From positions 570,001-602,000 of the forward strand of contig CP006868.1 of NCBI GenBank assembly GCA_025340205.1: a stretch of 32,000 nucleotides of DNA, given 5' to 3'. Of this stretch, positions 1-30,301 are shown piece by piece. The notes beneath the pieces are model-generated. The model searched no databases. It was not told the origin of the DNA and saw nothing but the letters and a program-made list of their open reading frames with translations. This DNA comes from Ignicoccus pacificus DSM 13166 (GTDB taxonomy: Archaea > Thermoproteota > Thermoprotei_A > Sulfolobales > Ignicoccaceae). Position 1 is the first letter of the stretch, and the number at the start of each line of letters is the position of its first letter. The position numbers were made by a program, and so were the translations under genes.

Positions 1-1
1 G

Positions 2-1492
2 ATAAAGCGCATAGGCATAGTCTTACAAGAAGCTGCTGAGAAGAGTGGTAACGCCTTTGAGTGGATAAATACAGACCCGCTACGCGACTTTCAAACCTTA
101 AGCTTGTACTTGAACGTTTATGACATAAAAGCTCTTAGAAGCGGGTTCGAGAATCCTTACTTACTTATTACATCGTCGACGAACAATTACATAGCACAAA
201 ACGTCTTGAATGCTGAACTTTGGGCCTATGATGTTACTCGAACCCATGATCTCAATTATAACGAAGATAGAAACAAATTAGAAGAAGCTCTTAAAAGAGG
301 AAGAGCCTCGATATTATATCATCATGCTGACTTGAAGAAAGACATAAGAAGTTACTTAGAATCCGAAATCAAGAAGAAACCACCTCTAGTCCTTCTCGCA
401 ACCTCTACGCTGGAAGTAGGAGTAGATTTACCGAACATACCCTTTGTAGTACAAGGAGGCATTGATTACGTCGAGACCGCTGACTTCTTGCAAAGAGTAG
501 GAAGAAGCGGTCGTGCCGGAGAAACTTTCTTCATTTCCTTAGCAACTATCGTACTTAAAAACAGAGGCGTTGACAGTACGATCAGAAATGATGAAGAGTT
601 AATAGAATATGCCGTAAACTTGAGACTGGGGCTGACCGCTTCCCCGCTAAGCGATCCTATAATAACTACCAAGCAAACGATTAGCCTAATCTACAATTTC
701 AATAAGAATAAATATCCAGATATAATGGACATCATAAGGGATCGTGATGTCATAGGCTTTGTTAAAAGCGCCGCTATTGCTTACTCGGAATATCCGAAGG
801 AATTTATACCCAATGTAACTAGAAACTTAAGAGTGTGGTTAATATACTATGCTACAGTGAAAGATGCTCTAGAAGGAGCTACACATACAAATAAGATTTC
901 CGAGATAGGGTGTGATGAAGTAAATGAAAAAGAGATAATCAGCTTGCTATTAGCTAAGCTTTACTCGCCCCATATAACCATGGAACTTAAATCGCTCCTT
1001 CGCGAGCTCCTAAACACGCTCGAAATACCCACCAATCATAAGGAAGGTACAAAGTTCCTACTCATGATCAGTTCCTTCTTGGACCTAATTGATAAAAACG
1101 ATAAACTAACTGAACAAGAGCTAGAATTACTCGCTAAGGTGTTACGTTATCTCGCCCCAAGAGCATTACCTATCTTACCCACTTACCTACTAGACTATAT
1201 AATGAATAAGACCCTAAAAATTATAATAAGTAACGTAGATAAGGATAATAGAGAACTAATTAACTTAATGATCTGTATCTTGTATTGTGTTATAAAGAAC
1301 ATAAAGAGGGTGAGTGTTAAAGTAAGCAAAAGCTTTGAAGTGGATAGTTTGATAGATAGAGTGTTAAGAGATAACTTCTTTGGGTTATTCGAAGAATATG
1401 GGGCCCCAACGAATTCCAACAGCTGTGACGGACAGAGCTGCGATCCCAACTCTTTCCTCATGGCAAGTAGACCTCTGAGATATGAGAGGTGA
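2..1492 (+). CDS. Superfamily-2 helicase, C-terminal part (5' end outside window); DrmA-like candidate
   Basis: The frame is open from window base 2, with no stop before the listed start at 104, so the gene is truncated by the window edge. RecA2 motifs are LLATSTLEVGVDLP (motif V-like) and LQRVGRSGRAGE (motif VI QRxGRxGR, nt 488-523). About 320 aa of unrecognised AT-rich C-terminal extension follow. Stop TGA 1490-1492 directly abuts ATG 1493 of the next gene. Confidence 0.75.
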   Translation: MKRIGIVLQEAAEKSGNAFEWINTDPLRDFQTLSLYLNVYDIKALRSGFENPYLLITSSTNNYIAQNVLNAELWAYDVTRTHDLNYNEDRNKLEEALKRGRASILYHHADLKKDIRSYLESEIKKKPPLVLLATSTLEVGVDLPNIPFVVQGGIDYVETADFLQRVGRSGRAGETFFISLATIVLKNRGVDSTIRNDEELIEYAVNLRLGLTASPLSDPIITTKQTISLIYNFNKNKYPDIMDIIRDRDVIGFVKSAAIAYSEYPKEFIPNVTRNLRVWLIYYATVKDALEGATHTNKISEIGCDEVNEKEIISLLLAKLYSPHITMELKSLLRELLNTLEIPTNHKEGTKFLLMISSFLDLIDKNDKLTEQELELLAKVLRYLAPRALPILPTYLLDYIMNKTLKIIISNVDKDNRELINLMICILYCVIKNIKRVSVKVSKSFEVDSLIDRVLRDNFFGLFEEYGAPTNSNSCDGQSCDPNSFLMASRPLRYER

Positions 1493-3697
1493 ATGGAGAT
1501 GGTAAAGTTTCCCATGTTTTACTTAGTAAGAAATGGTTCTATAAAAGCCTTGACGTACTGTTCGAAGATTTGTGTACACAAAGGTACAATATCCATATTA
1601 TTATATGGAAATCCACTAAGGTATAACGCCAAAAATTGCATATTCGAAGCCATTGAGTACTCATTGCCAGAGGTAAACCACGCGGTTGAAAGCGACAACG
1701 ACTTAGCATCGCTTTGCAAGAACACTACGTGTATGAGCTACACTAATGATGAGAACTGCAAAAAAGCGTTAACTACCATATACTTACTGGATGAGGACTT
1801 CTATCAAGATCATAATAATAGTAATGTAATCGTAGTGTCCAAGTTGTGTGATACATCGAACAAGTTAGCATACGTTTACGCTCAAGCACAAGATGAATTT
1901 GATAAGAGACGTTACTCTCTTACGCTCCTCCTCCACGGATCCCCTTTTGAGAAACCCCAGAAGATCTCGAAGATCTTACTTAAGGGCAGTGTACCCCAAT
2001 ACATCACCTTACGTGTGTTTAATGTAGTTGAACCCAAGAACTTGAGCTTCCTCGATTATATACCATACCAACTTGTCTTTACAGGCTTTGGAGTTTATGA
2101 GAAAGTCGAAGAAGGTAACTTTTTCAAAATCGTAAAGACTAGAGGATTTACCAGTAGAACGTTGCTAGCCTCTACCATAGTACTAGACGAGAAGCCGAAG
2201 AGGAGACAAATCCCTACACCTCTTCCGACCAACGTAAGCGGTAGCTTAGTGGAGAGGGGGTCTTCCAAAGGTTTGATAAGGTTAAGTACCGGACTTGATT
2301 CTCCCACGGTCTTCATAGGAAACTCCTTAGCAATAGGTCTAATCTTCGAAAATTTGGATGACTTATATAAGTCCTTAAAGGACTCGTTTAGAACTTTTGT
2401 CGAAGACTCTCTTGGTGCACTCCATGATTTGTTGGAAGATGATGAAGAGAATTTCCACGTGAGAATGAGAAGCTTGAGGGAACGACTACGACATGACGTC
2501 GCAACGTTTGACATGAGGTACTTCTTGAAATCCTTAGTACATTACCTAATGGGTAGCATTTCTCTAGGGAATGGAAATCTATGGAATGTAGCATGGTATG
2601 AAAGATACTTTAACATGGAATTAGATGATGTAAAAGCAATTCTGAGTTCGTTTTTAAGAAAAGTAGGATATGGTGAGGTTGATATCCAGAACATGAGACT
2701 AGGGTCAATAATATTGAAGATGAATTTTGACATAAAGATAAAGAAATCAAAATCGCACGGCAAACTCTTCGAAATATTAAAGTTCTATGATTTACTAAAC
2801 GGTTACTTTCAAATGAAGAAGAACAAAATCCGTTTGGATGAATGGGAAAGAGCTGCCTTAAGGAAAGTTTTGTTATTGATATCCGTGGCTCTTGTAAGCA
2901 AAGGTATCAAACCAGGTGCCAAGCTTGATGAGACTTTAATGTCACATACAAAAGATGTTCTCAAAGAGCTTTTACGGGAATCCCTAACAATAGCTGAACG
3001 TCTTAGTGCAGCCACTATAGAAATGGGGCTCCATGCTCTCTCGCACGCCCTTATGTCGTTTTTAATAGAAAAAACCGGATATAGTGACGTAACTGAGATA
3101 GTAATCGTAGAGGGTCCTTGGAGCAAAAGCTTTGCTACTCTCCTCGACGGCTTCTTCCTAAGGGTGCCAGGGGATTACGTCAAGGGAGCTATCTTTGCCA
3201 TATCATACACTTCAGGAAGCGGAGAACTGTTTGAGAGATTTAGGATAAAATTGGATGAGTTTATGTCTTACGTTAACTCGATTCTTTATCTCAATGGTCT
3301 TGATAGATGCTATGAATATTGGTTCCAAAGGAGAACTGCCTTAAAGAGGGCCTCTGCTATTAGGGGATATGGAGTCAATGAGGCAAAATATTCCAGTATA
3401 CCGATAGTGAGGTCCCTTATGCCCTACAATTTGAGAAGCGTCGATGAAGTTATAAGTTATCTCTCAATTGATACAGAAAACGCGAAAGAACTAATTTCAA
3501 TTGTGTATGGCAAATCTAAGAGAGCTGACAAGCAATACTTACTAGAGCTCAGTACCCCTGATTGCTTTGACGGTTGTGAGGCTTGCATAGGGATGCACGG
3601 GAGCTGCGCGGTTTCCTCTCCTCTACCGAAGATGTGGACATATAGCAAGAAAGCTCTCGAAATATTGCTTAAAGATGTAATTACACATAACGGTTAG
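1493..3697 (+). CDS. DUF1998/MZB-like zinc-binding domain protein (DrmB-like), large unknown N-terminal region
   Basis: 734-aa ORF coupled to the helicase stop. The C-terminal part carries the elements I associate with DUF1998: GLHALSHAL (H514, H518 by my count), AISYTSGSGELFERF, and a four-Cys cluster CFDGCEACIGMHGSC (C691, C695, C698, C705). The first ~500 aa are unrecognised. Confidence 0.6.
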   Translation: MEMVKFPMFYLVRNGSIKALTYCSKICVHKGTISILLYGNPLRYNAKNCIFEAIEYSLPEVNHAVESDNDLASLCKNTTCMSYTNDENCKKALTTIYLLDEDFYQDHNNSNVIVVSKLCDTSNKLAYVYAQAQDEFDKRRYSLTLLLHGSPFEKPQKISKILLKGSVPQYITLRVFNVVEPKNLSFLDYIPYQLVFTGFGVYEKVEEGNFFKIVKTRGFTSRTLLASTIVLDEKPKRRQIPTPLPTNVSGSLVERGSSKGLIRLSTGLDSPTVFIGNSLAIGLIFENLDDLYKSLKDSFRTFVEDSLGALHDLLEDDEENFHVRMRSLRERLRHDVATFDMRYFLKSLVHYLMGSISLGNGNLWNVAWYERYFNMELDDVKAILSSFLRKVGYGEVDIQNMRLGSIILKMNFDIKIKKSKSHGKLFEILKFYDLLNGYFQMKKNKIRLDEWERAALRKVLLLISVALVSKGIKPGAKLDETLMSHTKDVLKELLRESLTIAERLSAATIEMGLHALSHALMSFLIEKTGYSDVTEIVIVEGPWSKSFATLLDGFFLRVPGDYVKGAIFAISYTSGSGELFERFRIKLDEFMSYVNSILYLNGLDRCYEYWFQRRTALKRASAIRGYGVNEAKYSSIPIVRSLMPYNLRSVDEVISYLSIDTENAKELISIVYGKSKRADKQYLLELSTPDCFDGCEACIGMHGSCAVSSPLPKMWTYSKKALEILLKDVITHNG

Positions 3698-4395
3698 AAG
3701 ACCTTGAATAGGATCAATAGCAAGGTAGAGTAAAGCATAAATCTACTCATCTCTTTCCACCCAAACCTCTTCAATTCCTTTGGATTAACTTTAACGTTAT
3801 TTAATACATTTCTAACGAACTTTATCGTTGGTTCAATAAAAGCGATTAAGGAACAGGGTTTAAATATGAATACTGGGAGGGAAAGTCCCCATACCGCTAA
3901 GGCCGTTCTGGGATCCACCTTCCTCCACGGTAGCTTGCTCTCTATGTAAGCAGCAGTAGCACTCACATAGATCGCCAAAGCGTACCAGAATACTAGCTGA
4001 GTCAAAGTAACTTTGGGAGATAAGTAAATGATTATGAAAGAGGTAAGGGTAGGGATGGAAGAGCCTAGGATGTAGGCGTGAGGGTTGTCCCTGGACTTAA
4101 AGAGGTACAAATAGAGGAAAATTATTATTGCTGGTATTACCAATACTACCAAATTAACCTTTACGAATAATGGTAATACCAAATAGGGGATTATGTTCAA
4201 AGCTAAATAAGGAGCCGCCTCCTTAGGCGATATCTTGAGCCTTCGAAACGTCTCATCAAAGGTACTCAAGTGTATTAAGAGGAGTGTCATCGCTACGGGA
4301 ATTAGGTAGAGGGGTAAAGGAGTTAATATCAACATGTACAAGAAGGATACTATCATGAATCCGGCAGCGCTGGGCTCTTGGGGTAGAATTCTCAC
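3694..4395 (-). CDS. Multi-pass membrane protein, family unknown
   Basis: 233-aa ORF with about 7 hydrophobic helices, for example FMIVSFLYMLILTPLPLYLIPVAMTLLLI and VVLVIPAIIIFLYLYLF. GTG start at 4393-4395. Its stop overlaps the stop of the DUF1998 gene (TTAG at 3694-3697). Confidence 0.6.
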   Translation of the reverse strand: MRILPQEPSAAGFMIVSFLYMLILTPLPLYLIPVAMTLLLIHLSTFDETFRRLKISPKEAAPYLALNIIPYLVLPLFVKVNLVVLVIPAIIIFLYLYLFKSRDNPHAYILGSSIPTLTSFIIIYLSPKVTLTQLVFWYALAIYVSATAAYIESKLPWRKVDPRTALAVWGLSLPVFIFKPCSLIAFIEPTIKFVRNVLNNVKVNPKELKRFGWKEMSRFMLYSTLLLILFKVF

Positions 4396-4545
4396 CTCTT
4401 CTTCCCCCTTCCCCCGAGGGGGAGGGATTATTGGTGTGTCGAGTACACTTGAAGGAGCGTTGGATCCGAGGTAGTTAATTTCTCTAAGCGATAACCCTTC
4501 TCTATTAGGAATAGCATAAACCAGAAGGTGACCTCGAATTCGGCT

Positions 4546-4556
4546 ATCTTAAATTC
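4546..4556 (+). promoter_or_regulatory. TATA-like box upstream of the 1158-aa surface protein gene
   Basis: atcttaaattc lies about 30-40 nt upstream of TTG 4586. An SD-like GGTGA sits at 4577-4581, 4 nt before the start. Confidence 0.3.
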
Positions 4557-4585
4557 CATCTATCGCGTCGTAGCTGGGTGAGTGA

Positions 4586-7500
4586 TTGAGGACGCTGTTA
4601 CTGGCGCTCCTCTTAGCCTCTTTAACATTCGCCCAGAGCTACCTAATGATCGTCCACAACCCAAATTCCCAGACCTTAACGAACTTCCAAGTTAGAGCGA
4701 AGCTCCCTGCAGATCTTCAAGGGAAAGCCCTTACCATCAAGGACATGAATGGCAATCCAGTTCCCTTCTGCTACGAAACGGCAACTGGAGAGTGCACCAC
4801 CGATCCAACTCAAGGAGATGGCTACGTATGGGTGAAGGTTCCTTCGATTCCGGCAAATGGAGATGCTAAGTTAGTTGTGGAAGTTGGAAGCAATGGAGCG
4901 GTAAAGGGAGATCGAGTGTTTGAGTTCTACGACGACTTCAACAATCCTTCCTCCTTGAATCAATGGGAAGTAATCGAAGGGAAGGCAAAAATAGAGAACG
5001 GGGCTCTCGTCTTAACGGATGCAGGTCCTTATCAAGAGTTGCACCTGCAAGGCTTCAGCTTCTACAATGGAGTAATCGAGGTTAGGTGGAAGTGGGAGAA
5101 AGGGTGTGACTGCAACTATGGCGGAATGTACGTCCTAGCAAGAGTTCAGAGCGATGGCTCCGCTTATGCCGCCGCCACGGGAAGTTATGCCAACGAGTTC
5201 GTCATAGCCTACGACGACGACGGAAATAGAGATTCTTGGACCAATTTGGAAACCTATGGCTCCCACAACGACCTCGTAGAAGACAATTGGTACTACGTCT
5301 ACTTCGCGCTAGACGGTGAGAACCTAAAGGCGTGCCTCTACGAGAGCTACATAAGCGGGAAGATAACTTGCTTAAGCGCTACGGACGATCACATAACCAC
5401 CTCCGGCAAGATAGGGCTCGGAGGTTGGCAGATAGAGTACTTCGACTGGATCCGCGTTAGAAAATATGCTCCCATCGAACCAACGGTAACCTTCCAAGCC
5501 TACGGAGGCTATCAAGCCCCCTCAACCGTTACCGGAATGAGCCAAGTGTGGAGCTACGATATAGGCTCAAGCGTGGAGGCCCTGGCCTTCTCGGATAATG
5601 GAAATCTCGGGGCCGCTTCCGTGGACCGCTGCGCTTACGTCTTCGACCAGAGCGGTAACCTCCTGAACAAGGTCTGCGGAGACGACTGGATGAACGACAT
5701 CTCCTATGCCAACGGGAAGTTCCTGGCGGACAACTACGACAACTACCTCTACATAATGAGCGAGCGAGGCACTTTGATCAAGAAGCTCGAAGTAGGGGAG
5801 AGCTACGATGACGGAGTTACCGCCTTCTCCCAAGGATTTATCGTCTGCGACGACTACTGCGCCTACTACAACTGGAACTACGAGAAGATCTGGGATACCT
5901 CGGTGGGAAGCAACACCCATACCAGCGGTCCCGCGATAGCTAAGGGCTACGTTTACGCTCTAGCGGTGGACAGCGGCAAAGTGAAGATAATCTCCCTCTC
6001 CAGCGGGAGCGTGGAGGGAAGCGTTACCTTAGATGGAGATGCCTACGACGTCGCCGCTTGCGGGAACTACTTGGCTGCTGCAAGCCAAGACAAGCTCTAC
6101 TTGTACTCCTTGGACGATCCAACTAGTCCTACCTTGCTCTGGACGAAGGACATTAGCCTAGGGGATGCTGACTACCGCTCCTTGGCCTTCTCGCCCAACT
6201 GCAAGTTCCTGGCCTTGGCTGACACAAACAACGATCAAGTAGATATATTCAACGCGAAGACGGGAGCTATCGTTTACACAAAGGACTTCGACAGGCCCAC
6301 AGCCGTCGCTTGGTGGAAGGACGAGCTAGCCGTAGCGCAGAAGGACGGCTCGATCTACGTCTTCAGGCTAGAAGGATTCAAGGGCCCCGCCTATTCTCCT
6401 ACACCCAGCTCTTCTACGATCACCGGCCTAACTCTACTATGGAGGCACGGGTTCAGCGGAACGGCTGATGCTGTAGCGATAGCTGACAACGGAAACGTAG
6501 GAGTTGCCAATTACGACAACTGCGCCTACGTGCTGAGCAAGACCGGCTCCGTGCTAGGCAAGTACTGCGGAGGGGATGACGTGGACGACGCCTCTTACTG
6601 TTGCGGCAAGTTCGGCTTCGCTGACATAGACGACTACGACTACTTCTTAGACGTGACCGGCAACTACCTAAAGGCGATACATGTAGGAGATGACTACGAC
6701 TTCGCCATAACAATGCTTCCCAACGGCTTCATAGCTTGCGACGATTACTGCGGCTACTTCACCTACTCCGGAAGCCAGATCTGGAGCACGGAGCTTGACG
6801 GAGAGGCTAGGAACGGCCCAGCGGTCTACAAGAGCTACGTCTACGTTCCGGACTACGGAGAAGACGAGGTAGAGATACTTAGCTTGAGCGACGGAAGCGT
6901 TCTCAACAAGATGAGCTTTAGCAGCGCGGTCCACGACGTTGGAGTCTGTGGGAAGTACTTGGCCGTGGTTACCAGCAACAAGCTGTACCTCTACAAGCTA
7001 ACCGATCCGACCGACCCTACCTACTTGTGGAGCGTTGGAAACATTTACATAAACGACGAGTACAGCCAGAACTTGGCCTTCTCTCCAGATTGTAGGTACG
7101 TAGCGGTAGCGGATACCGGAAACAGGGCCTTGAAGATTTACGATATCCAAGGGAACTTAGTCTTGAAGAGGAGCTTCCCTGACCCGGTGAGAGGGGTGGA
7201 TTGGAGAAAGGACTGGATAGCGGTGAGCTCGGGATACTACGTGTACCTCTTCAAGGTGGAAGGGTACAAGCCCCAAGGGGCTCCGGTGACCAAGGCACAG
7301 ATGACTACAGTTACGAACACGGTCACGGTGACCAAGACGATTACAACTACTGTGACACAGACCGTGACCAAGGAGGTTACGTCGACCGTTACCCTTATGA
7401 TAGGGGGAGAGAACGTAAAGGTACAAGTAAGCGGCGATCTCCTCCAACCTTACATAAAGCTCACGAAGTTGTACGATACTATCTCGAAGAGTACTGGTTA

Positions 7501-8062
7501 CAAGGCTACACTACTAAAGGCCCCCTTCCAGAGGCAGATAGCCTACATTTCAGCATTATCCAACTTCGCCAGCTTAGCAAAGAGGCTCTACTTGCTGCTA
7601 GGAGAGGCTAAAGATAACATAAACAAGGCAGAACAACTGTTACAAAAACAGCCAACCTTCAAGAATGCCTTCGAATTCATGAACTTAGTACAAAAGGCTA
7701 TAGTTAACTTGAACCTAGCAAACGATGTATTGAAGAGGCTCGAAGCACAAGTAAATACCTTGAAGGCATCAATGCCGTCAATAGACTGTACGACCCTAAA
7801 GACCGAATTGGGAGATCCAATAGAGCTAACCTACAAGGTACTGAACGCTACTACGATGCTGGAACTTATACAGATAAGAAAGGAGTTAGAGAAGTATGGA
7901 GGAATAGATGCCTTGGCAAAGTGCGTAATAAAAGAAACTATACAAGAAACGATAGCGCTTTGGAACCAAAAGAAAGTTGAGTTGATGAACGAGATAGCGA
8001 AGCTTAAGGCGCAAGCGGAGGAGCTGAACCAGTACGTAAAGTACCTAAGCGTGGGAGGTTAA
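4586..8062 (+). CDS. Large secreted cell-surface protein: signal peptide, DUF2341/LamG-like N-domain, two tandem beta-propeller-like modules, Thr/Val linker, C-terminal coiled coil
   Basis: TTG start. Signal peptide MRTLLLALLLASLTFA|QS. The N-terminal segment (NFQVRAKLP...DMNGNPVPFCYE...GYVWVKVPSIPANGDAKLVVEVG) resembles DUF2341 and is followed by a concanavalin/LamG-like stretch. Two ~295-aa repeats are present. The TTVTNTVTVTKTITTTVTQTVTKEVTSTVT linker is followed by about 220 aa of heptad-like, lower-GC sequence with no TM segment. Confidence 0.85.
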   Translation: MRTLLLALLLASLTFAQSYLMIVHNPNSQTLTNFQVRAKLPADLQGKALTIKDMNGNPVPFCYETATGECTTDPTQGDGYVWVKVPSIPANGDAKLVVEVGSNGAVKGDRVFEFYDDFNNPSSLNQWEVIEGKAKIENGALVLTDAGPYQELHLQGFSFYNGVIEVRWKWEKGCDCNYGGMYVLARVQSDGSAYAAATGSYANEFVIAYDDDGNRDSWTNLETYGSHNDLVEDNWYYVYFALDGENLKACLYESYISGKITCLSATDDHITTSGKIGLGGWQIEYFDWIRVRKYAPIEPTVTFQAYGGYQAPSTVTGMSQVWSYDIGSSVEALAFSDNGNLGAASVDRCAYVFDQSGNLLNKVCGDDWMNDISYANGKFLADNYDNYLYIMSERGTLIKKLEVGESYDDGVTAFSQGFIVCDDYCAYYNWNYEKIWDTSVGSNTHTSGPAIAKGYVYALAVDSGKVKIISLSSGSVEGSVTLDGDAYDVAACGNYLAAASQDKLYLYSLDDPTSPTLLWTKDISLGDADYRSLAFSPNCKFLALADTNNDQVDIFNAKTGAIVYTKDFDRPTAVAWWKDELAVAQKDGSIYVFRLEGFKGPAYSPTPSSSTITGLTLLWRHGFSGTADAVAIADNGNVGVANYDNCAYVLSKTGSVLGKYCGGDDVDDASYCCGKFGFADIDDYDYFLDVTGNYLKAIHVGDDYDFAITMLPNGFIACDDYCGYFTYSGSQIWSTELDGEARNGPAVYKSYVYVPDYGEDEVEILSLSDGSVLNKMSFSSAVHDVGVCGKYLAVVTSNKLYLYKLTDPTDPTYLWSVGNIYINDEYSQNLAFSPDCRYVAVADTGNRALKIYDIQGNLVLKRSFPDPVRGVDWRKDWIAVSSGYYVYLFKVEGYKPQGAPVTKAQMTTVTNTVTVTKTITTTVTQTVTKEVTSTVTLMIGGENVKVQVSGDLLQPYIKLTKLYDTISKSTGYKATLLKAPFQRQIAYISALSNFASLAKRLYLLLGEAKDNINKAEQLLQKQPTFKNAFEFMNLVQKAIVNLNLANDVLKRLEAQVNTLKASMPSIDCTTLKTELGDPIELTYKVLNATTMLELIQIRKELEKYGGIDALAKCVIKETIQETIALWNQKKVELMNEIAKLKAQAEELNQYVKYLSVGG
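5522..7285 (+). repeat. In-frame tandem duplication of a ~295-codon module (copy 1 5522-6406, copy 2 6407-7285)
   Basis: The protein copies align along their whole length. STVTGMSQVWSYDIGSSVEALAFSDNGNLGAASVDRCAYVFDQSGNLL matches SSTITGLTLLWRHGFSGTADAVAIADNGNVGVANYDNCAYVLSKTGSVL. LAFSPNCKFLALADTNNDQVDIFN matches LAFSPDCRYVAVADTGNRALKIYD. IYVFRLEGFKGP matches VYLFKVEGYKPQ. Confidence 0.9.
7304..7393 (+). repeat. Thr/Val-rich low-complexity linker (likely O-glycosylated stalk)
   Basis: Imperfect ACN-GTN codon periodicity encodes TTVTNTVTVTKTITTTVTQTVTKEVTSTVT. Confidence 0.7.
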
Positions 8063-9835: not shown

Positions 9836-10657
9836 GTGGAGGGGAGGAGACTCTGGATATATGAGACCTACGGTCACGTCTACGATGTTTACGTTAAGGG
9901 AAAAGACGTTCTAGCAGTTAATGAGAACAAGCTCCTACTTCTTAATGAAGAGGATTACAAGGTACTCTACCAAGCCCCCTTCGGTCTAACCTGCGTGAAG
10001 CCTATGGAATTTGAACTCGTTTTAGGAATGGAAGGGAAAGCGCTCCTCTTCCTAGGGGAGGAGGAAAGTAAGGTCGATCTAGAATATGGAGTTAACGACT
10101 GTATGCCTAAGGGGAACAAGGTAGCAGTAGGTCTATGCTGTAACGGAATGGCTTTGGTTGAAGATGGAGAGGTGAAGTGGCACTTGGAGACGGACAACCA
10201 CGTGTACTCTGTCGATTGGTACGGAGACGTAATAATAGGGGCGGGCTTCGACGGCTTCCTTTACGCTGTAGGCGAGGAGGGAAAGGTGCTCCATAAGCTC
10301 CCATTAGCTGAGAACGTGAACGTGGCTAGGGTTTGCGGGGACCTAATAGCGGTAGGGACCTTCGAGCCCGGTCAGCTCTACTTGCTCAAATATGATAAGA
10401 ACAACGGCTTCCAGATGGTTTGGGGAAAGAGGGATTTCTTTGACGTGAGGGCTTTAGCTTGGAGAAACGACTGCGAGTACTTGTTCGTGGCTGACTGGGA
10501 TGGAACGGTTGAGATATACGATCGACTAGGAAACATAGCATTGAAAGGAGTCGGGCCCAGATCTATGGAAAGCGCGCATTGGAATGGCGATTACGTGGCT
10601 TTAGGAGGCTGGGGAAGGATAGAACTCTACGAGATCAAAGAATCTTCCTCTGAATGA
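9836..10657 (+). CDS. Signal-less beta-propeller-like protein, paralogue of the repeat module in the 1158-aa surface protein
   Basis: VARVCGDLIAVGTFEPGQLYLLKY...VRALAWRNDCEYLFVADWDGTVEIYDRLGNIALK...HWNGDYVALGGWGRIELYEIKE aligns with VHDVGVCGKYLAVVTSNKLYLYKL...QNLAFSPDCRYVAVADTGNRALKIYDIQGNLVLK...DWRKDWIAVSSGYYVYLFKVEG. There is no N-terminal hydrophobic signal. Confidence 0.7.
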   Translation: MEGRRLWIYETYGHVYDVYVKGKDVLAVNENKLLLLNEEDYKVLYQAPFGLTCVKPMEFELVLGMEGKALLFLGEEESKVDLEYGVNDCMPKGNKVAVGLCCNGMALVEDGEVKWHLETDNHVYSVDWYGDVIIGAGFDGFLYAVGEEGKVLHKLPLAENVNVARVCGDLIAVGTFEPGQLYLLKYDKNNGFQMVWGKRDFFDVRALAWRNDCEYLFVADWDGTVEIYDRLGNIALKGVGPRSMESAHWNGDYVALGGWGRIELYEIKESSSE

Positions 10658-10993
10658 GGTAAGCTAGGAGGGGAGCGGTATAGAGCAACGTAAGGAGGGT
10701 CCTCCCTAGTACTGATATGCTGGAGTTGATGAATGCCATCGAAATAGCGTCCACTAGCTTCCTCCAGCTCATTTTAGCCCCTTAGAGGTATAGCCTTTCC
10801 GAGAGCTAGGAAAGAACGGTTTCAATGACACTTATCTCTCACCCCGATATGGTCTAGGTAAGACCGGAGATGAGCGCGAGTCGGAGAGCCGAGGGGTGAG
10901 GAGACCAGCTGAGCGGCGATCCATTTCCCACCCCAAACCCGCGTCCCTCCTTTAAACGGGTGGTCCATCTCTATAATCGAGGGGAACCAAGAA

Positions 10994-11812
10994 GTGACCG
11001 ACAAAGTGAGGTACAGAGCGGCTCTCAGAGGATGGCGGATAGTCGACGCCTTGGCCAGACCGGTATACAAGATATACGAGAGGAAGCTGGAGGACGAGGT
11101 GAAGAGCGGTCCTATACCGAAGCACGTGGGAGTGATTCCAGACGGAAATAGAAGATGGGCACGAATGAGAGGCTTGCAGGAGTGGCTAGGTCATAAGGAA
11201 GGCTACAAGAAGATGAGGGAAGTACTCCTCTGGCTCTTAGACGTGGGAGTAGAGATAGTAACTGTATTCGCCATGTCCACGGAGAACTGCTCGAGAAGGA
11301 AGAAGGAGGAGAGGGAGAAGCTCTACGAGCTCATAGCTGGTGGTCTAAGGGAGTTAGCAAAAGAGGAGATCGTTCACAAAAATAGAATTAGGGTGAAGGT
11401 AATAGGAAGGGACAACATGTGGCCTGACTTCCTCAAAGAGGCTGCTAAGTACGTTGAGGAAGTAACCAAGGACTACGGGGATAGGCACATAAACATAGCC
11501 GTCTGTTATGGAGGAAGACAAGAGATCGTGGACGCCGTGAAGAAGATAGCGGAGAAGGTGAAGAGGGGAGAGCTAGAACCGGAGGAAATAGATGAGGAGA
11601 CCATAAGCAAGCACTTGTACACCGCTCACCTTCCAGACCCAGACCTAATAATAAGGACCTCGGGAGAGGAGAGGATAAGCAACTTCCTCTTGTGGCAGTC
11701 CGCTTACAGCGAGCTCTACTTCGCAGATATGTACTGGCCCGAGATAAGGAAGATAGATATCTTGAGAGCAATTAGGGATTATCAAAGGAGACAGAGAAGG
11801 TTTGGAAGATAA
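10994..11812 (+). CDS. uppS: cis-prenyltransferase (undecaprenyl/tritrans,polycis-polyprenyl diphosphate synthase)
   Basis: HVGVIPDGNRRWAR and RTSGEERISNFLLWQSAYSELYF are hallmark UppS motifs. GTG start. Confidence 0.9.
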   Translation: MTDKVRYRAALRGWRIVDALARPVYKIYERKLEDEVKSGPIPKHVGVIPDGNRRWARMRGLQEWLGHKEGYKKMREVLLWLLDVGVEIVTVFAMSTENCSRRKKEEREKLYELIAGGLRELAKEEIVHKNRIRVKVIGRDNMWPDFLKEAAKYVEEVTKDYGDRHINIAVCYGGRQEIVDAVKKIAEKVKRGELEPEEIDEETISKHLYTAHLPDPDLIIRTSGEERISNFLLWQSAYSELYFADMYWPEIRKIDILRAIRDYQRRQRRFGR

Positions 11813-11822
11813 AAAGGGTCGG

Positions 11823-11848
11823 CTGAGAGAAGAGTCATCACCTCTCAG
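11823..11848. terminator. Hairpin between convergent uppS and dut
   Basis: ctgagag (11823-11829) pairs with ctctcag (11842-11848), giving a 7-bp stem and a 12-nt loop in the 51-nt convergent spacer. Confidence 0.25.
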
Positions 11849-11863
11849 GAGACCGTCGTGCGC

Positions 11864-12280
11864 TCATCCCCCCGTAGAGCCGAAGCCTCCTCTCCTTCCA
11901 TCGTTCGGAGGGAGTTCTTCAACCTCCACCGGATCGAAGTAGGCTACTGGAACTATTACTAGCTGTGCTATCCTCTCTCCCCTCTTAATTTCAATTTCCT
12001 TATCCGTAACGTTGGTCATAACTACCTTAAGCTCACCTCTATATCCGGAATCTATCACTCCGGCTAGACAGTGGAGACCCTTCAAGGCTTTTGAGGATCT
12101 ATCCTTCACCAAGCCTACGAAGCCTCTGGGAATGGCAACCGCTATTCCCGTTCTAACGGCCTTTACCTCATTTGGTTTTATTGTAGTATCTTCCAGAGCA
12201 TACAAATCTAACCCAGCATCCCAAGGATTAGCCCTCGTGGGGAGAATCGCTTCCTTCACGAACCTTTTTACCGGAAGCAC
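11864..12280 (-). CDS. dut: dUTP diphosphatase (trimeric dUTPase family)
   Basis: Motifs DAGLDLYA, GVIDSGYRGEL, RIAQLVI and the C-terminal RGGFGSTG. GTG start at 12278-12280. Confidence 0.85.
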   Translation of the reverse strand: MLPVKRFVKEAILPTRANPWDAGLDLYALEDTTIKPNEVKAVRTGIAVAIPRGFVGLVKDRSSKALKGLHCLAGVIDSGYRGELKVVMTNVTDKEIEIKRGERIAQLVIVPVAYFDPVEVEELPPNDGRRGGFGSTGG

Positions 12281-14715: not shown

Positions 14716-15597
14716 TTACTTTATGTAGGCGGTAGCCCTATCCATGACAGTACAGTAGAGCTTTACCGTATCCTTGTACTTGTACTGCCAAGGTCCGGTG
14801 TAGATTAAGTGGGCCTCTAGGTTAGCTCCAGCGTAGTATAGATCTCTAGTAAGGAACAAGGCGAGGGCCTCCGCTAGGGGCTCCAAGCTGGGGTATCCCT
14901 TACCTAAGGGAGTTCTCTTCTTCAGTATGAACGTCCTGAATCTGAACGCTATTATCTGAGAGAATCTGAGGCTGAAGAACTTGTTTGTCATCTTCTTGAG
15001 CTCGTTTAATATATTCAACCAGAAGTCCACAGTGGCCTCCTTGTCTGCCGCCGCTATGTTTCCATGCTCATATACCTTTAGCTCCCTCATGAAATCGTTC
15101 TCCAGCTGAGCGCTCGGTATTACCCTTTCATCGCCAACCATCTCTATTATCTCCTTTATCTCCTTTAAGCTTCCTAAGAACCTAGCTGTGTAGGTGGTCT
15201 CAAGGGAGACGTAGATATCGGGTACCTCGCTTAATATCGCCTTGACCACGTCGACAACAGGTTCATAGTCGTAGGGAACTCCTCTTACCTTAGCTCCTAG
15301 GTGCATGTTGAATATCTTCGCCCCCGCTATCCTGGCCCTCTTGGCCGCTTGTACCATTGCCTTCTTCACTTTGTTATGGGTGTATTGATCATGATTAACT
15401 AAACTGTAATAGGGAGCGTGAGCGGTTATTAAGACGAAGTACTTGGAAGCGAGCTCGTTATACTGCTTGAAGTAATCCTCAGTGTACCACCTTCTGGAGA
15501 AGTCGGCGGGAGGGATCTCGGTCAGCCTCATTCCAGTCAAGGACGCCTTCTCGAGTTTGGTTAAGCCATTATAAGTTCCCCAATCGAACAATGCCAT
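14716..15597 (-). CDS. TIM-barrel protein, AP endonuclease 2 / xylose isomerase-like fold (divergent Endo IV-like)
   Basis: ITAHAPYYSLVNH, IFNMHLGA, YVSLETTYT and RTPLGKGY resemble Endo IV blocks (HDSYLINL, NFHPGS, IENTAG, DRHxxLGxG). Other ligand blocks are not recognisable. ATG 15595-15597 is preferred over the longer ORF to 15714, whose N-terminus is Arg/Ser-rich and would overlap thyX. Confidence 0.55.
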   Translation of the reverse strand: MALFDWGTYNGLTKLEKASLTGMRLTEIPPADFSRRWYTEDYFKQYNELASKYFVLITAHAPYYSLVNHDQYTHNKVKKAMVQAAKRARIAGAKIFNMHLGAKVRGVPYDYEPVVDVVKAILSEVPDIYVSLETTYTARFLGSLKEIKEIIEMVGDERVIPSAQLENDFMRELKVYEHGNIAAADKEATVDFWLNILNELKKMTNKFFSLRFSQIIAFRFRTFILKKRTPLGKGYPSLEPLAEALALFLTRDLYYAGANLEAHLIYTGPWQYKYKDTVKLYCTVMDRATAYIK

Positions 15598-18703: not shown

Positions 18704-20284
18704 GTGATCAGCGAGGATACTGTACTGAAAGTGATCATGGAAGACGCCGGCTGCGAGAGGATGGACAAAGAGTGCTTGGAGAACATCCTAGAGCTGGTGA
18801 AGGAGGGAAAGTATCCAAGGTTGAGTACCGAAGAGCTAAGGGAGTTAGACGAAGGCTTGGCGAACTTAGTCAGCAAGGTGGGACTAAGAGACAGAGAGCT
18901 AGCGGAAAAGGCCACGAACCTAGGAATGGAAAAAACCGCCCAAGCGTTACAGTTTGGGCTACTGGAGGAAGAGGAGGAGAAGGAGGAGGCTCCGGGTGAG
19001 ATACCCATGGCTAGGAAAAAAGCTCCACCTAGAGAAACTCACGTTTCATATCAGCCCATGACCCAGAGGGCTGAGGTAATGCATCCCGTTACCCAAATCA
19101 AGATTAAGCAGAGTAAGGCACCTCTGGTACTCTCGATAATTGCTATTCTGTTATCCCTGGGCACGCTTGCCGTAATGATGGGTTACTTGACCCTTCCTGG
19201 AGTTAAGGTCCCGAGCGTTAAGACCATAGAGCAGATGAGTACCAAGATCAACAGTTTGGAAGCCATGGTTAAGAACTTGGACAACAGACTCTTGAGCAAC
19301 GTAGCAACCATAAATAGGAAACTAAACAAGCTTAATGCAAAAATTGACGCTATCCAAGCCAACGTCACGAAGTTGAACGCCTATGTGAACGCGCAGCTGA
19401 ACTTGCTAAACGAGAGGCTGGACAACCTGCAAATGAACTTAGCTAGGACTAGGAGTATAGCTATAAACAACAAGGCAGAGATAGAGACGCTCTCGGAGAA
19501 GATAGTTAACTTGAAGACCACGATGCAAGAGGAAATAAAGAGCTTGAGAAAGCAGCTAACCAGCATGATAAGCGAGTACCAAGCTAACGTAACCGCCAAG
19601 CTCGAACAGCTCAACAAGGAGTACGAAGCTTTGAATGAGGAACTCTTAACACTAAAGAAGGAACTCAACAGCTACGCTACAAAGGACGACGTAAAGAGCT
19701 TGGAGAGTAAGGTAGAACAGCTAAACGCTACCGTCTCAAAGATAAGGCTTACCTTAGCCAAGCTAGTGGCGCTCAACACTACTGTACAAGTGCTCGAGGA
19801 TCAGCTATCGAAGATGAGTGCCGAGATATACGCCCTCAAGACTCAAGTCGAGAAGATAGCTCAACTAGAGAATGAGCTGAACAAACTCAACGAAGAGCTC
19901 ACCATGCTGAACGCACAAGTTAGGGCGAACATGACCGAGATAAACTTGAAGGTCAAAGAATACCTGAATGAGGTGAACGCTAAGATAGAGGAGCTAAACG
20001 CTCAGCTGGCCATGCTAAAGAAGGATCTAAAGAGGTTGGACGAACAAGTGAAGGAGTTACCTCAGCTGGTCAACATGCAGATAGAAAAGGCGCTCAACAA
20101 CGAACAAGTGATCAACTCATTGGCCCATAAGCTACTTACTAAGGCGAAGCTCGACAAGATGGTGGCAAAGATGTTGCTGAGCAACGGTACGGCATTCTAT
20201 GACCTGGTTAAGAGGATAGCAGAGGAGGTGTACATCAACTTCACGGTGAATCCGCAGACCAACTTAGTGCAAGTTAACGGCTAG
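18704..20284 (+). CDS. Bitopic membrane protein with long extracellular coiled coil
   Basis: GTG start. The ~150-aa N-terminal region includes an acidic run EEEEEKEE. It has a single TM helix, APLVLSIIAILLSLGTLAVMMGYL. About 350 aa of heptad-like L/N/K/E-rich sequence follow, with several N-x-T sequons (NVT, NAT, NTT, NMT, NGT, NFT). Confidence 0.75.
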   Translation: MISEDTVLKVIMEDAGCERMDKECLENILELVKEGKYPRLSTEELRELDEGLANLVSKVGLRDRELAEKATNLGMEKTAQALQFGLLEEEEEKEEAPGEIPMARKKAPPRETHVSYQPMTQRAEVMHPVTQIKIKQSKAPLVLSIIAILLSLGTLAVMMGYLTLPGVKVPSVKTIEQMSTKINSLEAMVKNLDNRLLSNVATINRKLNKLNAKIDAIQANVTKLNAYVNAQLNLLNERLDNLQMNLARTRSIAINNKAEIETLSEKIVNLKTTMQEEIKSLRKQLTSMISEYQANVTAKLEQLNKEYEALNEELLTLKKELNSYATKDDVKSLESKVEQLNATVSKIRLTLAKLVALNTTVQVLEDQLSKMSAEIYALKTQVEKIAQLENELNKLNEELTMLNAQVRANMTEINLKVKEYLNEVNAKIEELNAQLAMLKKDLKRLDEQVKELPQLVNMQIEKALNNEQVINSLAHKLLTKAKLDKMVAKMLLSNGTAFYDLVKRIAEEVYINFTVNPQTNLVQVNG

Positions 20285-29257: not shown

Positions 29258-30301
29258 GTGAAGGAAAAGGTATTCGCATTAACCATACTCCTCTCCTTGC
29301 CAGCGCTAGCCGTCACGCTAACTGGAACAGGCTCCAGCTTCGTCTTCCCCTTCCTCTCCGCCGCTGCCTACTACTACCAGGGAGCCAACGTTCAGTACCA
29401 AGCCACCGGTTCAGGAGCGGGAATAGTGAACTTGCTCAATCACCTAACCGACTTCGCCGCAAGCGACGTTCCAATGCCTAAGAACAACTATTGCAAGCTC
29501 CTCTATGAAGGGAAGCAAGTGGTTCACGTTCCCTTGGTCGCGGGAGCAGTAGTAGTGGTCTACAACGTTCCCGAGCTCAGAGGGATGACCTTAAGGCTGA
29601 ACGGAAAGGTTCTGGCTGACATATACTTGGGTAAGGTGAAGTACTGGGACGATCCGGAGATCAAGAGGCTTCAAACCCCTCAAGTGGCCTCTCGTCTACC
29701 TCACAAGCCCATAATAGCCGTCCACAGGTCCGACGCCTCCGGAACAACCGCTGTCTTCACCACTTACCTCTCCAAGAGCAGCAGGGAGTGGGCCAGAAGG
29801 ATTGGATCCGGACTAACCGTCACCTGGCCCGTCGACAGGCTTGGGAGGGGAGTGGGGGCCCCCAAGAACCAAGGAGTCGCTGCCAGCGTGTCCAGAACCC
29901 CCTACAGCATAGGCTACGTTGAGCTGGCCTATGCGATTCAAGCTAGGCTTCCGGTAGCTGAGCTACAGAACGCTGAGGGATACTTCGTCAAGCCCACTCC
30001 AGAGACCATAAGCGCCGCCACCGAGGGTGCCATGAAGTACTGGGTCTGTGTACTCCACGCCCCCTACTGGTTCGCCAACTCCTTGGTGCTGGCTCCCGGA
30101 AGGAACTCCTACCCGATAGTAGCAGTTCCCTACATGATCTTCTTCAGGGACTCTCCCAAGCTACCCTACCTAATAAAGTTCGCCGAGTATCTGCTGAGCG
30201 ACAACATACAGAAGAACGTAGTGAGGATGGGATACGCCCCGCTGAGCAAGGCTCTAAGGATGGAGATAATCAAGGAGCTCAACATGCTCATGAGAAGGTG
30301 A
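29258..30301 (+). CDS. pstS: Phosphate ABC transporter substrate-binding protein
   Basis: GTGSSFVFPF, YQATGSGAGI and HRSDASGTT are PstS-type phosphate-binding blocks. It has an N-terminal signal/anchor. GTG start, with the TATA-like ccttttatacc at about 29211-29221. Confidence 0.8.
   Translation: MKEKVFALTILLSLPALAVTLTGTGSSFVFPFLSAAAYYYQGANVQYQATGSGAGIVNLLNHLTDFAASDVPMPKNNYCKLLYEGKQVVHVPLVAGAVVVVYNVPELRGMTLRLNGKVLADIYLGKVKYWDDPEIKRLQTPQVASRLPHKPIIAVHRSDASGTTAVFTTYLSKSSREWARRIGSGLTVTWPVDRLGRGVGAPKNQGVAASVSRTPYSIGYVELAYAIQARLPVAELQNAEGYFVKPTPETISAATEGAMKYWVCVLHAPYWFANSLVLAPGRNSYPIVAVPYMIFFRDSPKLPYLIKFAEYLLSDNIQKNVVRMGYAPLSKALRMEIIKELNMLMRR

Follow-up and report, generated by a model that had tools for sequence, protein, structure and literature searches.

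Among the helicases of the YprA family, DpdJ, DrmA and DruE act in defence (Bell et al. 2025, bioRxiv 10.1101/2025.09.15.676423), and the same work describes a separate gene for the OB-CON-DUF1998 part as a hallmark of DISARM, found sporadically elsewhere. For the linkage of Cas4-like nucleases with YprA/DUF1998 helicases, a probable role in defence had been put forward (Hudaiberdiev et al. 2017, PMC5704561). In a census of defence systems, few were counted in Thermoproteota beyond CRISPR, restriction-modification and Argonautes, and ways of searching fitted to archaea were urged (PMC12988326). Here, a stretch of 32,000 nucleotides (nt) from the archaeon Ignicoccus pacificus DSM 13166 is described (contig CP006868.1, positions 570,001 to 602,000; called the window below and numbered from its first letter). 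It begins with the 3' part of a superfamily 2 (SF2) DEAH-type helicase gene, followed by the complete gene of a partner protein of 734 amino acids (aa), IPA_03235, which the deposited genome lists as a "hypothetical protein" (100% identity between the NCBI entry and the open reading frame, ORF). It is proposed that bases 1-3697 are probably the downstream end of a split helicase module of YprA/DISARM-like kind, acquired horizontally and of defence type.

A four-gene operon in thermophilic archaea and the AT-rich block of Ignicoccus

Relatives of the partner were collected by an exhaustive phmmer search over 1.84 billion representatives and by a metagenome scan with the invariant motif of the family. 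The phmmer search returned seven remote relatives of 553-761 aa, alignable across the C-terminal ~250 residues, and the motif scan gave 31 further loci; from ~35 related loci, ~26 partner sequences are distinct at 90% identity. Word-indexed searches with IPA_03235 or with an eight-sequence profile found no relative and returned the self-match only. When hidden Markov models (HMMs) built from three loci were run over the related loci, a nuclease (~180-220 aa), the helicase (1212-1492 aa), the partner (708-783 aa) and a methyltransferase (~390-420 aa) were found to form one operon in this order, in genomes and metagenomes of thermophilic archaea; nuclease, helicase and partner stand in it in 23 of the ~35 loci, the shorter contigs carrying partial versions of it. 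The helicase and partner genes are separated or overlap by no more than ~15 nt in all related loci. In Ignicoccus, the TGA of the helicase gene (1490-1492) is directly adjoined by the ATG of the partner gene, with no gap, and both coordinates agree with those given in a first-pass annotation made from the letters of the window.

The first gene of the operon encodes a nuclease of the Cas4 family (PADLOC Cas4, E 7e-11; TIGR00372, 3e-9; Pfam Cas_Cas4, 1e-6), having D99, E112-x-K114, the QxxxY motif and the cysteines C44, C200, C203 and C208 of the Fe-S signature conserved at 90% or above. The Cas4 core together with the four cysteines was found in 19 homologous loci; in Ignicoccus, the nuclease gene would be located beyond the upstream edge of the window. 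The methyltransferase is present wherever a contig passes the partner gene, either directly downstream or after one extra gene. Its DPFAGSG and TSPPY motifs are likewise conserved at 90% or above and it matches PADLOC MTase_II at E 3e-15 to 2e-14; the last gene of the operon encodes an N6/N4 amino-DNA methyltransferase. A sub-type (L013, L027, L028, L029, L031 and L038; L numbers designate the loci compared) has an extra 460-aa ORF of no known family between the partner and the methyltransferase, and most of its loci also have a divergent Lhr-like helicase of 975-1009 aa upstream of the nuclease (TIGR04121, E 1e-78). No description or name of the four-gene archaeal operon was found in HMM libraries or in the literature consulted, including the main text of Bell et al. 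2025; the supplementary tables of that paper, in a text that may be partial, hold no Ignicoccus, Sulfolobales or Thermoproteota entries and are uninformative here.

The helicase frame is open from nt 2 over 496 codons until its TGA. Of the helicase motifs, the window shows only V (LATSTLEVGVD) and VI (QRVGRSGRAGE, aa 164-174, nt 491-523), the N-terminal part lying outside, and Pfam Helicase_C matches aa 88-173 of the fragment (E 8e-13). Past motif VI there is a family-specific C-terminal region of ~320 aa. The fragment is a true member of the operon helicase family, because its BLASTP match to the L003 helicase of 1293 aa (E 3e-23, with 35% identity across 158 aa) reaches past the generic domain and the family HMM matches it at E 5e-32. 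Since the homologues have 1212-1492 aa, some 750-1000 helicase codons should lie upstream of the window. GxGKT, DEAH, SAT and QRxGRSGR are conserved at 90% or above among the homologous helicases, which have the SF2 core of YprA/MrfA (COG1205) with a DExH motif II and motifs I-VI. The nuclease, the DEAH motor and the methyltransferase of the operon are all predicted to be active.

The best PADLOC match of the RecA1 region of the homologues is DpdJ (5e-22), then DrmA (2e-14) and DruE, and NCBIfam also gives DpdJ (7e-16). The PADLOC DrmA model matches the window fragment at E 3e-7 and three full-length homologues at 2e-14 to 3e-10; DpdJ and SngC do better, and all of these matches are partial. 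In tblastn searches of plasmids with the helicase, the top matches were haloarchaeal twin helicases adjoining genes for a phospholipase D-type (PLD) nuclease or for QueC/QueE (7-deazaguanine), one of them the twin or neighbour of WP_226013624.1, a BRIGADE representative in Bell et al. 2025; cyanobacterial helicases bearing MZB were also among the top matches. By these comparisons, the operon helicase appears closest to the YprA type (DpdJ, DrmA, BRIGADE), with no membership by threshold. A Flavobacterium helicase (L001) that came from a contig scan is unrelated.

The composition of the locus is foreign to its surroundings. The GC content is 0.397 in 1-3697, 0.426 in 3698-4585 and 0.503 in 4586-32000, and sliding 3.7-kb windows over this remainder (n = 95) range from 0.480 to 0.539 with a standard deviation of 0.014. 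At third codon positions (GC3), the helicase and partner genes have 0.41-0.43, against 0.56-0.71 in the other genes of the window, and the island stands at a tetranucleotide distance of 0.414 from the remainder, against 0.209 or less for every internal window. The break at the AT-rich block is far beyond chance, and the earlier observation that this block is more AT-rich than the remaining 27 kb holds; all three profiles are discontinuous. Related operons are also more AT-rich than their own flanks (L015, 2633-10619, GC 0.389 vs 0.520; L018, 4071-12125, 0.352 vs 0.478), and the presence of AT-rich operons in several hosts suggests repeated horizontal transfer from low-GC donors. The genes flanking the operon vary from one related locus to another. 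The family was not found in IMG/VR viral contigs nor in PHROGs.

The partner protein and its likeness to MZB

The conservation of the partner was followed in alignments of eight (A1) and 27 (A2) sequences. Invariant in the 27 sequences are K346, E510, G512, H514, H518, L520, G553, C606, F692, D693, G694, C695, C698 and C705, and C691 is conserved at 90% or above (His in one member). The conserved elements (Table 1) include the short motifs that the first-pass annotation had picked out, HALSHAL (within GLHALSHAL at aa 512-520), YTSGSGEL at aa 572-579 and the CX3CX2CX6C knuckle, all of which, together with QRVGRSGRAGE of the helicase, were located in the translations. Strands are predicted in aa 553-579 by both AlphaFold2 models at low confidence, and downstream of the knuckle P710, W715 and S718 are conserved, followed by a terminal helix. 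The candidate metal ligands are five cysteines; C606 lies ~85 residues upstream of the others, and the cluster is not closely spaced as it is in MrfA. In L026 (4515-6855, +), the partner gene is apparently split or frameshifted into ORFs of 194 aa and 582 aa, and a 548-aa C2H2 zinc-finger protein is inserted ahead of the methyltransferase.

The first-pass annotation had made its DUF1998 assignment depend on a significant PF09369 match, and by that HMM test the assignment formally fails. The 734-aa protein and its C-terminal 234 aa have no Pfam match at E ≤ 10 (the gathering score of PF09369, MZB, being 24.2 bits), the seven relatives have none at E ≤ 1, and the A1 and A2 profiles found nothing among PDB sequences apart from one spurious designed protein. 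As a positive control, the Pfam library does detect the MZB domain of a helicase from a Nostoc plasmid (L043, E 2e-19). Two helicases of L042 were scanned and have no Pfam MZB match at E ≤ 0.01; the Pfam MZB model under-detects archaeal MZB variants. The haloarchaeal BRIGADE-type helicases, counted in the YprA family by Bell et al. 2025, have 'HTLxHG' and 'CDCxDGCPxCLYQYGC' and in these closely resemble the partner family, with 'LHxxSHxL' and 'CFDGCYNCVLxxxxC'. Such BRIGADE-type helicases are encoded at L042 (3248-14244), L053 (6788-12352) and L054 (6689-12220), and C-termini of the form 'HTLxHG ... EGGAG ... CDCxDGCPxCLYQYGC' were seen in all four sequences examined. Three plasmid records named "DUF1998 domain-containing protein" were considered as DrmB comparators and rejected as fragments disrupted by insertion sequences, leaving no true DrmB in the comparison.

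Profile-profile alignment with hhalign was carried out against a template of 15 real MZB regions from plasmid records (10 in an earlier version). Against a single MZB sequence, A2 gave an insignificant match (1% probability); unaided, it reached 24% probability with the 10 sequences and 50% with the 15 (E 1.6e-4, score 35.6), the alignments spanning 41-98 columns and setting CFDGCYNCVL...W.VSK..A..IL on C..aCYxCL...LDRH....LL of MZB, where the knuckle has the form 'C..(G/A)C(Y/P)xCL'. With aa 612-685 removed, the match rose to 93.8% probability (E 1.7e-7, score 51.4) over 95 co-linear columns, in which the HxxSH helix (EMGLHALSHAL) aligns with the first MZB helix ('SLxYAL / HTLxHG'), the family motif 'GxIxVxDxxPYS' aligns with the MZB strand-loop 'IxIYDxxPGGAG', and C606 falls on the first cysteine of the MZB cluster. 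Among the controls, the reversed template scored 17.7, block shuffles at most 30.3, and none of 100 shuffles of the columns of the 10-sequence template went above 18.6; of the other operon families scored against MZB, the Cys-rich Cas4 reached 14, the methyltransferase 15 and the helicase 24-26. The likeness in these alignments is specific but moderate, and the C-terminal domain of the partner is probably a true, highly diverged MZB homologue. The protein is predicted to be a helicase accessory subunit, with a divergent zinc knuckle of MZB/DUF1998-like type that is interrupted by an insertion and occupies the C-terminal ~240 residues.

Comparison with described systems and rival readings

Like the bacterial antiviral system DISARM, the operon has a helicase and a putative zinc-knuckle (OB-CON-DUF1998-type) module in two adjacent, coupled genes, with a nuclease and a DNA methyltransferase beside them; DrmA HMM matches are weak but repeated, and the composition and context resemble those of defence islands. 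It differs from DISARM in that the partner is not recognized by DUF1998, MZB or DrmB models and has its zinc cluster split by an insertion. Furthermore, a Cas4-like Fe-S nuclease of PD-(D/E)xK type is encoded upstream instead of the PLD-type DrmC downstream (no PLD was seen in the window or in related loci), none of the loci showed an SNF2 DrmD or a DrmE, methylation is assigned to a small (~400 aa) SPPY amino-methyltransferase, the hosts are apparently thermophilic archaea, and the Ignicoccus copy has no methyltransferase. The earlier inference of a horizontally acquired DrmA/DrmB-type helicase pair is thus sustained in part: the atypical composition, the operon with nuclease and methyltransferase and the YprA-like RecA1 region speak for it, whereas the DUF1998 likeness is remote and partly guided and the arrangement is not canonical DISARM.

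With YprA/MrfA (MrfA structure in PMC7797055) and the Dpd, BRIGADE, ARMADA and DruE helicases, the locus shares the DEAH SF2 core, a RecA1 region nearest to DpdJ and BRIGADE, the association with a nuclease and an apparent C-terminal order of helix, strand, helix, Cys knuckle (DGCxxC) and helix; helicase and partner together have ~2000 aa, close to the 1831-2097 aa of the fused YprA defence helicases. Here, however, the two parts are split instead of fused, the Pfam MZB threshold is missed, any OB and CON parts are putative, and no BrxA-like or other diagnostic insert could be recognized. Unlike Dpd and BRIGADE, the operon has no 7-deazaguanine genes, and from Druantia it differs by having only weak partial DruE matches, no fused DruE, and no DruA-D or DruH genes in the window or in related loci. 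The pairing of Hudaiberdiev et al. (PMC5704561), a solo Cas4-family nuclease adjoining a YprA-type SF2 helicase with a predicted defence role, is similar, but the cases described came from bacteria and mesophilic archaea and had DUF1998 fused to the helicase, whereas here the hosts are apparently thermophilic archaea, the DUF1998-like protein is separate and diverged beyond recognition and the methyltransferase is a fixed component. Type I/III restriction-modification systems also encode a methyltransferase in one operon with a motor of SF2 kind and a nuclease of PD-(D/E)xK type; in contrast to them, no specificity subunit of HsdS/Mod type and no Res/HsdR architecture is present, the nuclease is separate and of Cas4 type, and no Type I/III model was matched.

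By analogy with these systems, the module would consist of a large SF2 DEAH motor and a translationally coupled 734-aa accessory subunit, arranged like DrmA and DrmB of DISARM. The partner would bind the motor and form a canopy equivalent to OB-CON-MZB, as DISARM and MrfA suggest. In the manner of DISARM and restriction-modification, the complex would load on and translocate along DNA that does not carry the cognate methylation, unmarked DNA of invaders would be degraded by the Cas4-like nuclease, and the methyltransferase would mark and so protect the DNA of the host. Complex formation and the role in defence are likewise taken from the analogy and would apply to the module as a whole.

Several observations weigh against assigning bases 1-3697 to a defence-type split YprA/DISARM-like module. 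No match of the helicase comes near a curated cut-off, its RecA2 region matches Lhr-like and SngC models as strongly as RecA1 does DpdJ, and the window helicase is absent from a collection of 5.8 billion proteins that holds its neighbour IPA_03235. The partner, even as a 27-sequence profile, has no match in Pfam MZB, PADLOC, NCBIfam, PHROGs or PDB sequences, and its AlphaFold2 models are poor, with a pLDDT of 47 for the full length (8 sequences) and 42.5 for the C-terminal 250 aa; a Foldseek search of the PDB with the full-length model gave noise (best E 1.6). The best hhalign result needs a hand-chosen deletion, and other 75-residue deletions between helix and knuckle score nearly equal; therefore, the HxxxH helix, the Cys knuckle and the terminal helix carry most of the signal, and the boundaries of the insertion are approximate. 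No methyltransferase, nor a remnant of one, was found by HMM or tblastn in the 32-kb window, including the 28 kb downstream, the nuclease is not visible because its position is upstream, and the whole family is known from sequence alone. The lack of any database match for the partner, the unaided hhalign values, the gain that is not particular to the chosen deletion and the uninformative structure models would also suit a defence or restriction operon in which the 734-aa protein, unrelated to MZB, serves as a specificity or adaptor subunit that binds zinc, its MZB likeness being convergent and the operon a new helicase-nuclease-methyltransferase restriction type. Such convergence is unlikely given that no control, whether shuffled, reversed or from an unrelated family (the Cys-rich Cas4 included), reaches the hhalign score with MZB, that the order of elements is co-linear with MZB, and that the neighbouring helicase independently points to YprA-type relatives, which carry a near-identical 'DGCPxCLYQYGC' knuckle and 'HTLxHG' helix. 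The RecA2 matches in NCBIfam and PDB, which include Lhr, Hel308 and ligase-associated DEXH helicases, would suit a housekeeping DNA-repair helicase of MrfA/YprA or Lhr type, and MrfA-type helicases do act in repair (PMC7797055). These matches, however, are limited to generic motifs and lie far under cut-offs, and the relatives are few, scattered over otherwise unrelated contigs and in every case accompanied by genes for a DNA methyltransferase and for a nuclease of Cas4-like type. Because of the variable flanks, a composition strongly atypical for the host and the methyltransferase linkage, a housekeeping repair role for the Ignicoccus pair is very unlikely.

The preferred assignment to a horizontally acquired, defence-type helicase module leaves several accounts of the Ignicoccus copy itself. 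The first-pass annotation had seen neither a methyltransferase nor a PLD nuclease downstream, and the HMM and tblastn scans agree, with no PLD or PD-(D/E)xK nuclease related to the homologous operons anywhere in the 32 kb. The copy is either incomplete or decaying, or served by a methyltransferase encoded elsewhere, or a methylation-independent variant. Its being a non-functional remnant that lost the methyltransferase and perhaps the integrity of the helicase, which would be compatible with the identity of the module, is a real if lesser possibility. The methyltransferase, of which no trace was found here, is present at each related locus that continues beyond the partner gene, and the helicase fragment, without a self-match in the collection containing IPA_03235, fits a pseudogene annotation; by this indirect hint, the deposited genome may list the gene as a pseudogene or not list it at all. 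Against a remnant, both frames are intact in the window (496 and 734 codons), the partner keeps every residue that is invariant in the family, helicase motifs V and VI are retained, as is the tight stop/start junction, and absence from a protein database is indirect evidence. The remaining suggestion of the first-pass annotation, the membrane protein as a partner or effector of a non-canonical helicase-DUF1998-membrane system, is highly improbable. Its stop codon (3694-3696) overlaps that of the partner (TAG 3695-3697) and its GC of 0.41 is closer to that of the island than to that of the other genes, but it has no homologue in the ~35 related loci, where the corresponding slot is taken by the methyltransferase (in the sub-type, after one extra gene), it is encoded on the other strand, and no family in Pfam, PADLOC, PHROGs or other libraries matches it. 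It is a neighbour or other cargo of the island and no conserved component.

Features of the window and significance of the operon

Table 1. Coordinates of the features discussed, numbered within the window unless a locus is named.
Feature	Position (nt)	Strand	Remarks
SF2 DEAH-type helicase gene, 3' part	1..1492	+	Final 496 codons, read from nt 2; truncated at the window edge
Partner gene IPA_03235 ('famX'), 734 aa	1493..3697	+	ATG 1493 to TAG 3695-3697
Helix motif E-x-G-x-H-x-x-x-H-x-L, EMGLHALSHAL, aa 510-520	3020..3052	+	Invariant in 27 members
Beta-strand region, DGFFLRV to AIFAISYTSGSGEL, aa 553-579	3149..3229	+	G553 invariant, R557 nearly so
Cys606 ('DRCY'), proposed first zinc ligand	3308..3310	+	Invariant, 27/27
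Helical insertion of ~75 aa, aa 612-685	3326..3547	+	Family-specific, poorly conserved; splits the zinc cluster; variable or gapped in alignments
Cysteine knuckle CFDGCEACIGMHGSC, C-x3-C-x2-C-x6-C (C-F-D-G-C-x2-C-x6-C), aa 691-705	3563..3607	+	Conserved
Hydrophobic membrane ORF, 233 aa	3694..4395	-	Convergent with the partner gene
AT-rich compositional island	1..4400	.	Open at the window edge; core 1-3697, intermediate 3698-4585
Example of the operon sub-type (locus L031)	1225-4152 and 10574-11956	- and +	

The membrane ORF has ~7-8 hydrophobic segments by eye, and a crude Kyte-Doolittle scan resolves fewer; of the earlier description of a converging 7-TM (seven-transmembrane) protein, the convergence and the overlapping stops stand, and the number of segments is approximate only. 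Downstream, the genes are of ordinary host type and host-like composition, including those for a DUF2341/beta-propeller surface protein, UPP synthase and class V FBPase, among others. The first of these (4586-8062, +), with a host-like GC3 of 0.65, forms the right-hand border of the AT-rich island. It encodes a protein of 1158 aa with an N-terminal hydrophobic leader, DUF2341, a pair of similar modules resembling beta-propellers, a linker rich in Thr and Val and, at the C-terminus, a long coiled coil; it is likely a surface protein. A 526-aa protein (18704-20284, +) is nearly all coiled coil and matches only filament-like or apolipoprotein-like low-complexity models. ARAGORN reports a tRNA-Ser(tga) at 29635-29704 (-), inside the ORF 29258..30301; an Rfam scan of the window at gathering thresholds gave no tRNA, and the ARAGORN call is probably a false positive. 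Among the flanks of related loci, L007 (GCA_054016835.1) has a HEPN/NTP_transf_2 nucleotidyltransferase pair (14821-15382, -) ~1.4 kb downstream of the operon. Pairs of HEPN and nucleotidyltransferase genes are typical neighbours in defence islands.

The operon could, at a stretch, be taken further, as an archaea-specific and unnamed branch of the YprA/DISARM systems composed of a Cas4-like nuclease, a giant DEAH helicase, a split MZB subunit diverged beyond recognition and a methyltransferase, invisible to current defence-finding tools and confined to thermophilic hosts of Thermoproteota type, with the Ignicoccus copy as a methylation-independent derivative. This extended proposal is speculative and rather unlikely as a whole; if it were true, self/non-self discrimination in the Ignicoccus lineage would be possible by the helicase-partner complex alone.

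The four-gene operon is conserved and has a restriction-like logic, yet no model of Pfam, PADLOC, NCBIfam or PHROG recognizes its signature subunit. For annotation, IPA_03235 and its relatives could be named helicase-associated zinc-binding subunits instead of hypothetical proteins. The instance in the window is truncated and atypical, and the insight at the level of the system is worthwhile for the study of archaeal immunity. If confirmed, the operon would extend the YprA/DISARM helicase superfamily into hyperthermophilic archaea and would represent a second, independent split of motor and MZB canopy, together with a swap of the PLD nuclease for one of Cas4 type. It would also provide thermostable proteins for mechanistic study of how such helicases recognize foreign DNA.

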